A DNA stretch of 64,000 nt from Pseudomonadota bacterium (GTDB lineage Bacteria > Pseudomonadota > Alphaproteobacteria > Acetobacterales > Acetobacteraceae): the NCBI GenBank assembly GCA_021816925.1, contig JAKAWQ010000009.1, forward strand, positions 2,364 to 66,363, written 5' to 3'. The notes below the pieces were generated by a model. It saw only the letters and a list, made by a program, of their open reading frames with translations. It was not told the DNA's origin and searched no databases. Below are positions 24,984 through 29,525 of this stretch, one piece after another. The stretch's first letter is position 1. Each line of letters opens with the position of its first letter. A program made the position numbers and the translations under genes.

Positions 24984-25445
24984 TCAAGGCGGGAACGCTG
25001 CTGCTTTCGGCTGAGATAGGGCCTCGATCAAAGGGCATTCCGCCGGCCCGCCCGCTTGGCATTGCCGGATGAGCGCCCCCAGAGTGGTCTCGACCGCCCG
25101 GAGATCAGCGATTTTGCGCCGCACGTCCTGGCGATGGCGGATGGCGGCCCGTTTAACGTCCTCGCACGGACGCTCTTCCCCCTCAGCCAGGCTGAGAAGG
25201 CCACGCACCTCGTCGAGAGAAAAGCCGAGTTTCCGGGCACGGTAGATGAAGGTAAGGCGCGCGATTTCACTGGTGCCGTAAACCCGGCGGCCACTCTCGG
25301 TGCGCCGCGGTCGCTGAAGAACACCGACCTTCTCATAGAAGCGGATCGTGTCGATGCCGCAGCCGGTTCGCCGTGCGGCCACGCCGATCGGTACCAACCC
25401 GCCAGCGGACCGGGCAGCCGATGCGCGGGTTCGACGGTCATCCAT
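24984..25445 (-). CDS. merR: MerR family Hg(II)-responsive transcriptional regulator
   Basis: It has an HTH segment (IGVAARRTGCGIDTIRFYEKVGVL) and three Cys positioned as in MerR (...EERPCEDV... and ...QCQAGGPAECPLIEAL). ATG at 25445 is used here; the track starts at an alternative TTG at 25454. Confidence 0.9.
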   Translation of the reverse strand: MDDRRTRASAARSAGGLVPIGVAARRTGCGIDTIRFYEKVGVLQRPRRTESGRRVYGTSEIARLTFIYRARKLGFSLDEVRGLLSLAEGEERPCEDVKRAAIRHRQDVRRKIADLRAVETTLGALIRQCQAGGPAECPLIEALSQPKAAAFPP

Positions 25446-25464
25446 GCGGCTCAACGCATGCCCC

Positions 25465-25495: not shown

Positions 25496-25684
25496 GAACT
25501 TCGCCAGATGAATTGGAGGGGTCATGAGTTTCAGACTAGGCGATGTTTCTTGCGCGGCCAGCCAAGCGAGGCGCAGCGCCAGTTCTGACGGCGGCCGCGA
25601 CCGGCCACGGGCGGCTCTGGTGTCGGGATTGCATGGGCTTCTGCGCAGTTTTCCTCCCGGGGCGGCAGAAGGAATATTCATCCA

Positions 25685-27736
<2,052 letters not shown>

Positions 27737-27802: not shown

Positions 27803-28396
27803 GTGACAACAGCCAATGACTCCAGTCATCACCGGTTCCAGGCGCGCGGGAGCACCTTGGTTGCCACACTGGCCCTTCTCGGCCTCGCGTCCGCGGCCGC
27901 GGCGGCCGCGCCCACGGGCAAGATGGGGCCGACCAGCGCACCGGCGCCGCAAAACATGGCCGCGCCCAATGCGCCATTCACCATCGACGGGCGCAGCGCC
28001 GAGTTGAAAACCTATATGGGCCATCCGCTCGTGATCTGGCAGGTCGCCACCTGGTGTCCGAGCTGCCGGGCCGGGCTCGAGACCTTCGCGCAGCATCAGG
28101 CGGAGATCGACAAGTCGGACATCACGATCCTCGTGCTGCGCGACTACAAGAACGGCGGCTACCCTGGCGTCGGCATGCACAAATTTGTCGAGCAGGTCGC
28201 GCCGAAGCTCCTGAACGACCCGCATTTCGTGATCGGGAAAGACACGAAGGCGTTGTTCGACCTCTACAATCCGCACCACTTCATCGATGTCTATCAAGTG
28301 ATTGCACCGGACGGGCACATCGTCGTGGTTTCCTCGACCCCCTCCGCCACCTTCAACAAGATCGAAGGCTTCATCAAGCCAAAGACCGGATCATGA
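27803..28396 (+). CDS. exported thioredoxin-like (TlpA/redoxin) protein
   Basis: 197 aa. It has a signal-like N-terminus (LVATLALLGLASAAAAAAP) and a WCPSC active-site motif in a thioredoxin-fold context. Confidence 0.85.
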   Translation: MTTANDSSHHRFQARGSTLVATLALLGLASAAAAAAPTGKMGPTSAPAPQNMAAPNAPFTIDGRSAELKTYMGHPLVIWQVATWCPSCRAGLETFAQHQAEIDKSDITILVLRDYKNGGYPGVGMHKFVEQVAPKLLNDPHFVIGKDTKALFDLYNPHHFIDVYQVIAPDGHIVVVSSTPSATFNKIEGFIKPKTGS

Positions 28397-28914
28397 TCGC
28401 CGTGCTCCATCAGCGCGCGAAGATGGTGCCGCGTGCCCTCCAGATCGCCCTCGGCTCCCGCCGGGCCGTGATGGGGACGGCGGCGCTATTTCTCGTGGCT
28501 CTCGCTTTCTATGCGATGCTCCTGCCCGCAACCAGCACCGGCGGTGCGCTGGGGCTTGTCTCGCTTCGCTTTCTGTCGCCGGCCGAGTTCGTCCTCGCGG
28601 CGATCATGGCCGCGCTTCTTGCGCTGACGGTGGCACTCGGCGTCTACGGCCTCCGCCAGGGATCGCGGATGCACCCGGCCGACACCGTCCTGGGTGCGGT
28701 GCTGGCAACCTTGCCCGCGCTGCTTTGCTGCACGCCGGTCCTGCCGCTGGCGATCGCGACGATCGCCTCCGTGCTGCCGGCGGTCGGACAGTTTGGAGTG
28801 CCGATCCAGGGCTTCATCGCGACTCATGAGGGCGCGATCTACGGGGTAGCGATCGCACTGATGGTCTGGGGCCTCTATGGCAGTGCCCAACGGGCGCTGT
28901 CCTGCGCCTGCTGA
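28393..28914 (+). CDS. membrane protein with a MerF/MerT-like vicinal-Cys helix; putative Hg(II) transporter
   Basis: The ATG at 28393 overlaps the upstream stop as ATGA. The product is multi-TM. The helix LPALLCCTPVLPLAIA resembles the CC(F)TPVL motif of MerF. The C-terminus is ...SCAC. Confidence 0.65.
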   Translation: MIAVLHQRAKMVPRALQIALGSRRAVMGTAALFLVALAFYAMLLPATSTGGALGLVSLRFLSPAEFVLAAIMAALLALTVALGVYGLRQGSRMHPADTVLGAVLATLPALLCCTPVLPLAIATIASVLPAVGQFGVPIQGFIATHEGAIYGVAIALMVWGLYGSAQRALSCAC

Positions 28915-29525
28915 GGTTGAACCGTACCGGGTTTCCCGGAGGCTGTTTGGTTTGAGTCACGCTGCCATGGGTGGCGGCGAGAGCCCGCAGCACGCAATCG
29001 AGGATCTTCCGGCCGAGACGATCGTCTTCCTGCTCGGCAGCCGGTACTGCGAGACCGATCGGCTTTCGGACATCGCCCGAAGCCTGTTCGGCAACATTCC
29101 GGAGGACTTCGCGCTCGTGCAGGCGATCTGCGACTTCGTGCACGGACACCTGACCTTCGGCTAACCAGCACGCGCGCACCACCCGCACCGCCTGGGAGGC
29201 CTACAACGAGCGCGTCGGCGTGTGCCGCGATTTCGCCCGCCTCGCGCTCGCGCTCTGCCGCTGCATGAACATCCCGGCGCGCTACTGCACCGGTTATCTC
29301 GGCGATATCGGCGTACCGGCAGATCCGGCGCCGATGGATTTCTCGGACTGGTTCGAGGTCTTTCTCGACGGGCACTGGCACGTCTTCGATCCGCGCCACA
29401 ACGTGCCGAGAATTGGCCGCGTGCTGATCGGTTACGGCCGCGACGCCGCGGACGTGCCGATCAGCCACGCCTTCGGGCCGAACATACTGACCGGCTTCGA
29501 GGTCTGGACCGACAGGGTGGCTTAA
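28877..29525 (+). pseudogene. transglutaminase-like cysteine protease family gene, 5'-truncated and frameshifted
   Basis: ORF 28877..29164 (...DLPAETIVFLLGSRYCETDRLSD...ICDFVHGHLTFG*) and ORF 29220..29525 (VCRDFARLALALCRCMNIPARYCTGYLGD...) are two halves of one gene. Removing one A near 29163 restores ...FGYQHARTTRTAWEAYNERVGVCRDF. By my recollection of family length, the N-terminal roughly 100 aa are absent. Confidence 0.7.

Follow-up and report, generated by a model that had tools for sequence, protein, structure and literature searches.

A merA-linked gene pair encoding an exported redoxin and a vicinal-cysteine membrane protein is a candidate Hg(II) uptake cassette of acidophilic bacteria and some archaea

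Introduction

Reviews and surveys of the mer system list only MerP, MerT, MerC, MerE, MerF, MerG and MerH for the binding or transport of Hg(II) (PMC3466566; PMC8261052; PMC7760498). Here we analyse a stretch of 64,000 nucleotides (nt) from a pseudomonadotal bacterium of the Acetobacteraceae (assembly GCA_021816925.1, contig JAKAWQ010000009.1, positions 2,364 to 66,363; hereafter the window), in which a mercuric reductase gene, merA, is followed by two genes encoding an exported redoxin and an inner-membrane protein with a vicinal pair of cysteines in a transmembrane (TM) helix, hereafter the CC protein. We consider it probable that this pair is a candidate cassette for Hg(II) uptake, a thiol relay that would do the job of both MerP and MerT. 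An earlier, sequence-only reading of the window had proposed the pair as a possible uptake module and did not know it as a described one; likewise, a full-text literature search found no description of the redoxin–CC pair, whose members carry the RefSeq labels ‘redoxin family protein’ and ‘hypothetical protein’. What is new here is the membrane family and the fold of its partner, while mer importers of the Hg(II) thiol-relay type are known.

The MerT–MerP systems of Tn21 and Tn501 resemble this pair in consisting of two genes, one for a periplasmic CxxC protein and one for an inner-membrane protein that carries CC within the membrane and a Cys pair on the cytoplasmic side, and the pair can fill the same slot between merR and merA. 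In contrast, MerP has the ferredoxin-like HMA fold whereas the partner in the window has the thioredoxin fold of ResA and TlpA, and MerT has three TM helices, with CC in TM1 and a second set of cysteines in the cytoplasmic TM2–TM3 loop, whereas the window protein is predicted to have four, with CC in TM3 and the second set in its C-terminal tail. MerF, the two-TM importer of pMER327/419-type mer operons, resembles the CC protein in its vicinal Cys pair within the membrane, with (x)TPxL after it, in its helical hairpin with both ends cytoplasmic and cysteines in the C-terminal tail, and in being encoded beside merA in mer operons. It differs in size (81 amino acids, against 173 for the window protein, which has two extra N-terminal TM helices and an amphipathic helix), in its tail (ACC rather than SCAC) and in lacking the obligate exported redoxin partner. 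MerH (171 amino acids) and MerC are like the CC protein in size, in their four predicted TM helices, in having cysteines within a TM helix as well as at the C-terminus, and in their position beside merA, but both carry the Cys motif in TM1 and neither has a redoxin partner. Finally, the redoxin shares with ResA, TlpA, CcmG and Etrx a fold (TM-score 0.73–0.79 normalised to ResA chains; Foldseek prob 1.00), an N-terminal signal or anchor, the CxxC and the cis-Pro, as well as having a Cys-bearing membrane protein as its partner; it differs in its own conserved motifs (TWCxSC, GGYPG and PDIYxLI), in a membrane partner unrelated to CcdA/DsbD, and in a context of merA rather than cytochrome maturation.

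Results

A translationally coupled gene pair downstream of merA

The redoxin and CC genes are genuine, and they are coupled in translation and inherited together. The sequence-only reading had noted an exported redoxin with WCPSC and a multi-TM protein with a CC helix and a C-terminal SCAC downstream of merA, overlapping as ATGA, and each of these features was found again in the sequence (Table 1). The redoxin gene begins 66 nt after the merA stop codon with a GTG, which is preceded by AAAGGGGA at a distance of 7–8 nt, and the codons of W84-C85-P-S-C88 lie at 28052–28066. The ATG of the membrane gene (28393–28395) lies over the TGA of the redoxin gene (28394–28396), and this overlap indicates translational coupling of the two genes; the same −4 nt overlap is inferred in most of the proteobacterial homologous loci. 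The CC protein carries LPALLCCTPVLPLAIA and ends in SCAC. The merA gene is intact and encodes a full-length MerA, with an N-terminal HMA (NmerA) domain, the CINVGC active site and a C-terminal CCAG (Cys pair); its product is matched by the Pfam families HMA, Pyr_redox_2 and Pyr_redox_dim.

Linkage of the pair to merA across genomes

The distribution of the pair was followed through 51 loci from a one-genome-per-species scan (185,579 species), supplemented with three annotated plasmids and with twelve contigs, metagenomic or genomic, that carry distant members. The redoxin gene adjoins the CC gene in 58 of the 62 loci where adjacency could be judged, and the pairing with this TWCxSC redoxin subfamily persists down to 24–35 % identity and in either gene order, which is far beyond chance. 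In 44 of 50 informative loci (88 %) merA lies no more than 3 kb from the pair, under regulators of the MerR or the ArsR type; among the six others, a merR-type gene immediately precedes the pair in three, two of which also have further mer genes nearby.

Two operon layouts recur. In one, represented by the window, pACMV1 of Acidiphilium multivorum and an Acidithiobacillus ferrooxidans plasmid, a divergent merR is followed by merA, redoxin and CC genes, with a small open reading frame (ORF) before merA; in the other, found in Thiomonas and relatives, the order from the divergent merR is redoxin, CC, merA, which places the pair in the classical merTP position. The pair accompanies merA in dozens of acidophilic bacteria and in some archaea, its hosts comprising Acidiphilium and Acidocella, Thiomonas, Rhodanobacteraceae, Acidithiobacillus plasmids, Methylacidimicrobium, Saccharibacteria-like metagenome-assembled genomes (MAGs) and haloarchaeal plasmids.

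Pairwise distances between CC proteins correlate closely with those between redoxins (r = 0.93), whereas each correlates with MerA distances at only ~0.72, and closely related pairs adjoin MerA proteins that are 57–58 % divergent. The pair thus behaves as a cassette that became linked to distinct merA lineages on more than one occasion, which argues for repeated recruitment rather than a single hitch-hiking event and is hard to explain unless the pair works with MerA. Moreover, in about 30 merA-linked loci a tblastn search with verified MerT, MerP, MerC, MerE and MerF detected none of these canonical transporters, and the pair is the only candidate transporter there.

A further instance of the pairing, a 59th, occurs on a plasmid of Halobacterium zhouii (NZ_CP089595.1, 4527–5852), where a 441-residue fusion lies directly 5′ of the CC gene. 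It joins a C2H2 zinc-finger-like N-terminus, the redoxin subfamily and DUF3105, in that order, within an ArsR-led operon divergent from merA–merB. Considering this fusion and its operon context, DUF3105 may be functionally tied to the redoxin–CC module in haloarchaea.

Three loci have contexts of another kind. In a nanohaloarchaeon-like MAG (locus L039) the pair stands under an ArsR regulator and beside cupredoxin and DsbA-like genes. On a bacterial contig (locus L062, 5444–8636) a homologous redoxin–CC pair (38–42 % identity) has as neighbours an OmpR-type two-component system and a DegP/HtrA protease, and merA does not occur within 6 kb; the locus belongs to the small number of contexts that fit an envelope-stress rather than a mercury role. 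Locus L049 gave a partial match to the membrane protein only, and no merA or merR match.

The exported redoxin

The redoxin is an extracytoplasmic member of the TlpA/ResA superfamily and forms a distinct subfamily within it. Its N-terminus (approximately residues 1–36) is a hydrophobic signal or anchor that varies among homologues. Matches to the Pfam families AhpC-TSA and Redoxin were weak or marginal, and the scores lay far under the NCBIfam equivalog cutoffs (19 bits against 230 for TlpA, 18.6 against 170 for ResA, ~19 for StoA), DsbE likewise falling short. The redoxin gave no HMA-domain match, nor does it show the GMTCxxC that marks MerP-type proteins. Across an alignment of 21 homologues from related loci the invariant residues are T83, W84, C85, S87, C88, Y120, G122, D162, Y164 and P180; both cysteines of the CxxC are thus kept in 21 of 21, and P180 is the cis-Pro of thioredoxin folds.

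An AlphaFold2 model, with a predicted local distance difference test score (pLDDT) of ~95 in the core, returned ResA, CcmG/DsbE, TlpA and Etrx1/2 as the best Foldseek matches, with Sco proteins weaker, and a profile search of the PDB also found Etrx, TlpA and ResA. The subfamily comprises 105 clusters at 90 % identity, against 109 for the membrane family, and in public records it goes under generic labels (peroxiredoxin, redoxin family protein, TlpA family disulfide reductase).

The CC membrane protein and its family

The CC protein matches no Pfam or NCBIfam family, and scans of it together with 54 relatives gave noise only (Colicin_V, SecF, weak MerT). A word-indexed search of 5.8 billion proteins collected the 109 clusters of its family, mainly from Acidiphilium, Acidocella, Rhodanobacteraceae and Betaproteobacteria of acidic sites, all of them unnamed or called ‘hypothetical protein’ and with zero Pfam domains; an exhaustive HMMER scan of 1.84 billion representatives gave 85 clusters at 50 % identity. 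Among 54 diverse members, with identity to the window protein down to 21 %, Cys112 and Cys113 are the sole invariant columns, and they sit in a motif LLCC[ST]PxxP, which reads LLCCTPVLP in the window.

The AlphaFold2 model of the membrane protein (pLDDT 71.7) consists of an amphipathic N-terminal helix followed by four TM helices, with CC in the middle of TM3, which is kinked at CC-TP. The mean number of Lys plus Arg over the family is 4.3 in the N-terminus, 0.8 in loop 1, 3.1 in loop 2, 0.5 in loop 3 and 3.6 in the C-terminal tail, and by the positive-inside rule these counts point to an N-in/C-in topology with a cytoplasmic tail. That tail holds at least one Cys in 42 of 54 representatives (78 %) and at least two in 24 of them. 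The predicted periplasmic loops carry conserved segments, LPAT-TGG after TM1 and QGFIATHE between TM3 and TM4. A Foldseek search of the PDB with this model gave a best E of 1.8; the model is weakest around CC, so this is not evidence of a new fold.

Several relatives show unusual architectures or neighbours. One metagenomic member (P0168), a natural fusion, has an extra MerF/T-like CC hairpin before the four-TM protein, giving six TM helices and two CC motifs, and we count it in favour of the uptake model. In another metagenomic sequence (P0152) NmerA and the first ~190 residues of MerA are joined to the TM3–TM4 half of a family member, which is probably a deletion or an assembly chimera. Among distant relatives, additional small membrane proteins with CC motifs flank the pair: a 103-residue MerF-like protein (LLCCGAPLL ... 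RCCTAP) is encoded directly 5′ of the CC gene at L071 (1008–1319), and a 198-residue protein with GACCTLP is encoded two genes 3′ of the pair at L072 (2033–2629).

Remote relationship to MerF and MerT

For profile comparison, a plasmid record of the Tn21 type supplied verified MerT, MerP, MerC and MerE; MerF was drawn from several plasmid entries and MerH from pMM23 of Mycobacterium marinum. With HHalign the family profile aligned to MerF with Prob 82 % (E 1e-5, score 36), residues ~98–173 (TM3, loop, TM4 and tail) covering the whole of MerF, and to MerT with Prob 84 % (E 7e-6, score 39), the same half covering the segment from TM1 through the cytoplasmic Cys loop, with the two CC pairs superposed. 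The relationship of MerF to MerT is generally accepted, and as a calibration these two gave 95.7 % and a score of 51 under the same conditions. An artefact of composition was rejected as the source of the match, since reversed profiles scored 17–23 and 40 column shuffles per target at most 16, against 36–39 for the real profiles. We conclude that the C-terminal hairpin of the membrane protein is, by profile comparison, a specific remote relative of the MerF/MerT hairpin.

At the same time the protein lies, on its sequence, outside every named mer transporter family. Neither the window protein nor any of the 54 members matched Pfam Transport_MerF (PF11431) at E ≤ 1, and Pfam MerT (PF02411) was matched by only two of the 54, at E ~0.005 and below the gathering score. 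MerH, of similar size and with the same number of TM helices, was rejected with an HHalign Prob of 0.3 % and its CC in TM1, MerC (PF03203, NF033784) with a Prob of 1.5 % and zero NCBIfam matches, and MerE with a Prob of at most 1.5 %; the scores for all three were ≤18. Identity with CcdA/DsbD was rejected too, there being zero matches to DsbD (PF02683), DsbD_2 (PF13386) or CcdA among 54 members at E ≤ 1.

The sequence-only reading had called for a topology prediction and for comparison with the MerF, MerT, MerC and MerH families. The first gave the four TM helices, N-in/C-in, with CC in TM3; from the second, kinship with MerF and MerT emerged as remote, while none emerged with MerC or MerH. 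The cytochrome-maturation or disulfide-reductase system of the CcdA/DsbD–TlpA kind, which that reading had named as its refutation, did not appear in the membrane partner (0 of 54 members), and the redoxin itself is of the TlpA/ResA class. Its proposal that a thioredoxin-fold protein may stand in for MerP and a larger MerF-like protein for MerT gains support from the merA linkage, the occupation of the merTP slot and the MerF/MerT profile match.

Organization of the mer islet in the window

The features of the islet are collected in Table 1. The merR-type regulator has three cysteines with the spacing C-x34-C-x7-C, read from the translation, and scores 115 bits with NCBIfam MerR (TIGR02051) and 116 bits with CueR, each under its cutoff. 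The small ORF between merR and merA has a frame overlapping merA by 110 nt and encodes two hydrophobic helices and a low-complexity tail. It gave zero Pfam or NCBIfam family matches, and it has counterparts at the same position in two other loci (L001 and L002; 69–71 % identity); in A. multivorum pACMV1 the counterpart is annotated as a 170-residue hypothetical protein whose end coincides with the start of merA. The small ORF could be another Cys-bearing mer accessory membrane protein. A scan of the operon boundary for consensus promoters and terminators found none above the shuffled expectation.

Directly 3′ of the pair lies a transglutaminase-like gene (28877–29525, + strand) that appears to be split into two frames (28877–29164 and 29220–29525), of which only the second is matched by Pfam Transglut_core; this pattern points to gene decay at the border of the mer islet.

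Table 1. Coordinates of the mer islet features within the window
Feature	Position	Strand	Remarks
merR-type regulator	24984..25454	-	Divergent from the mer structural genes; Pfam MerR-DNA-bind, MerR_1, MerR
Small Cys-bearing membrane ORF (MNAYCDNPG...)	25684..26205	+	Between merR and merA; possible operon part only
merA, mercuric reductase	26096..27736	+	NCBIfam PRK13748 797 bits (cutoff 600), TIGR02053 570 bits
Exported redoxin gene	27803..28396	+	197 amino acids; TlpA/ResA fold
Redoxin CPSC codons (C85-P-S-C88)	28055..28066	+	Proposed periplasmic Hg(II)-binding or redox site
ATGA start/stop overlap of redoxin and membrane genes	28393..28396	+	
Four-TM inner-membrane protein gene	28393..28914	+	173 amino acids; unnamed family; predicted N-in/C-in
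MerF/MerT-like half, residues 98–173	28684..28911	+	Remote likeness by HHalign
Vicinal Cys112-Cys113 codons	28726..28731	+	From alignments
C-terminal S-C-A-C	28900..28911	+	Predicted cytoplasmic tail Cys

Discussion

The analyses presented here suggest that the redoxin and the CC protein probably act together in Hg(II) uptake. We propose that the exported redoxin would capture Hg(II) on its CxxC, in the periplasm or, in single-membrane organisms, at the outer face of the membrane, and would then dock on the periplasmic loops LPAT-TGG and QGFIATHE of the membrane protein. Hg(II) could be passed by ligand exchange to the invariant CC in the proline-kinked TM3, then onward to the tail cysteines on the cytoplasmic side and from there to NmerA or to the C-terminal Cys pair of MerA, which would reduce the delivered ion to volatile Hg(0). 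What we infer is that either protein binds Hg(II), that transfer runs inwards, and that the membrane protein interacts physically with the redoxin and, through its tail, with MerA; the model agrees with the invariant residues and the predicted topology, with the distant homology and the place in the operon, and with the repeated joining of the pair to merA. Such a relay would follow the same scheme as the established route from MerP through MerT to MerA (Morby et al., 1995 and Hamlett et al., 1992, both cited in PMC11227200; review PMC3466566).

A number of observations weigh against a role of the pair as Hg(II) importer. The likeness to MerF and MerT is remote (Prob <90 %) and extends over short hydrophobic segments, and in the MerF alignment, where the TPVL segments coincide, a shift of one residue separates the CC pairs (CC-TP versus CC-F-TP). 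The model of the membrane protein is least confident precisely around CC (pLDDT ~51–57), the tail cysteines are absent in 22 % of the family, and the proteins closest to the redoxin in structure (ResA, TlpA, CcmG and Etrx) are all disulfide reductases and not metal chaperones. Canonical transporters co-occur with the pair in about ten loci (merT–merP in L004; merC in L013, L038, L041, L047 and L064; merF in L011, L016, L023 and L028), so the pair is not always a replacement for them, and its co-occurrence with merF implies that MerF and the pair are not simply interchangeable. L039, L062 and L049 are informative loci without any mer gene nearby. Furthermore, the genome of the window has a second, degenerate mer locus on a contig of 4.4 kb, where a divergent merR is followed by merT–merP–merP, a truncated merA fragment (~residues 86–198 only), HMA domains and a P-type ATPase. 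The idea that this genome has no transporter but the pair is therefore not strictly correct: MerT and MerP homologues are present away from the only intact merA, and the pair is not demonstrably the organism's only route.

Considering that all of the closest solved relatives of the redoxin (ResA, TlpA, CcmG and Etrx1/2) are reductases that depend on CcdA or DsbD, the pair might instead be a transmembrane disulfide-reductase relay, a miniature analogue of CcdA/DsbD with TlpA/ResA that protects the envelope and does not import Hg(II). The tail cysteines and CC would then carry reducing equivalents outwards, and the redoxin, in which the CxxC and the cis-Pro are both invariant, would re-reduce or de-mercurate periplasmic thiols damaged by Hg(II); the contexts of L062, with its two-component system and DegP, and of L039, with its DsbA-like and cupredoxin genes, would also suit this function. 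We nevertheless judge this reading, the chief rival, unlikely. None of the 54 family members has a match to DsbD, DsbD_2 or CcdA, and their conserved membrane cysteines are vicinal only, whereas electron conduits described so far place their two cysteines on different helices rather than side by side, a vicinal disulfide being strained. The membrane protein specifically resembles the Hg(II) carriers MerF and MerT, and a disulfide relay would not require that the pair be linked to merA at such a frequency or occupy the merTP slot.

The hosts are mostly organisms of acid mine drainage, which face many metals, and it could be asked whether the linkage to merA simply reflects co-selection in metal-rich acidic habitats, the pair handling soft (thiophilic) metals in general, or serving in sequestration or efflux, for example by buffering Hg(II), Cu(I), Ag(I), Cd(II) or As(III) on the outward-facing side of the membrane. 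The neighbours of the pair do include cupredoxins, P-type ATPases and ars genes, and some members (L039, L070) are under ArsR-type control without an adjacent merA. However, ArsR-family regulators also govern bona fide mer operons, such as that of M. marinum pMM23; it is to merA in particular that the pair is linked, rather than to cop, czc or ars; it has become attached to several distinct lineages of that gene; and its nearest transporter relatives are importers. Such a general role is accordingly improbable in our estimation. As to whether the two are accessory genes with no mercury role, carried along on mobile mer islands, the islet in the window does lie among decayed genes (the transglutaminase-like fragment downstream) and homologues occur on plasmids flanked by insertion sequence elements. 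Against this, both proteins are conserved down to 24–35 % identity with invariant cysteines, their translational coupling is conserved, the pair occurs in Bacteria and Archaea, and it has been recruited independently to divergent merA lineages in two operon layouts. Such conservation makes passive carriage very unlikely.

A bolder version of the uptake model is also conceivable, although we think it rather doubtful. The pair might constitute a new minimal transmembrane thiol relay with MerA as its cytoplasmic driver, in which MerA, via its NmerA and C-terminal cysteines, would both accept Hg(II) from the tail and keep the Cys chain of the membrane protein, and with it the redoxin, reduced. If this were true, one NADPH-dependent enzyme would power both the import of Hg(II) and the repair or de-mercuration of extracytoplasmic thiols, a thioredoxin fold would have been converted into a dedicated Hg(II) metallochaperone, and the module would be the main importer of the archaeal and acidophile mer operons that are currently described without transporters.

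Finally, returning to the pair as a probable Hg(II) uptake cassette, mer operons without the listed transporters are read as having no dedicated uptake, and for dozens of them the pair is a candidate importer, namely in acid-mine-drainage bacteria (Acidiphilium, Acidocella, Thiomonas, Acidithiobacillus plasmids and Methylacidimicrobium) and in archaea. If the proposal is right, the annotation of mer genes in metagenomes would improve, as genes now called ‘hypothetical protein’ and ‘redoxin/peroxiredoxin’ could be assigned; the two genes would offer a compact part for the engineering of Hg(II) uptake at low pH and a clean system in which to follow the transfer of Hg(II) along cysteines across a membrane; and the mer system would gain a transporter family together with a further fold for its periplasmic partner.

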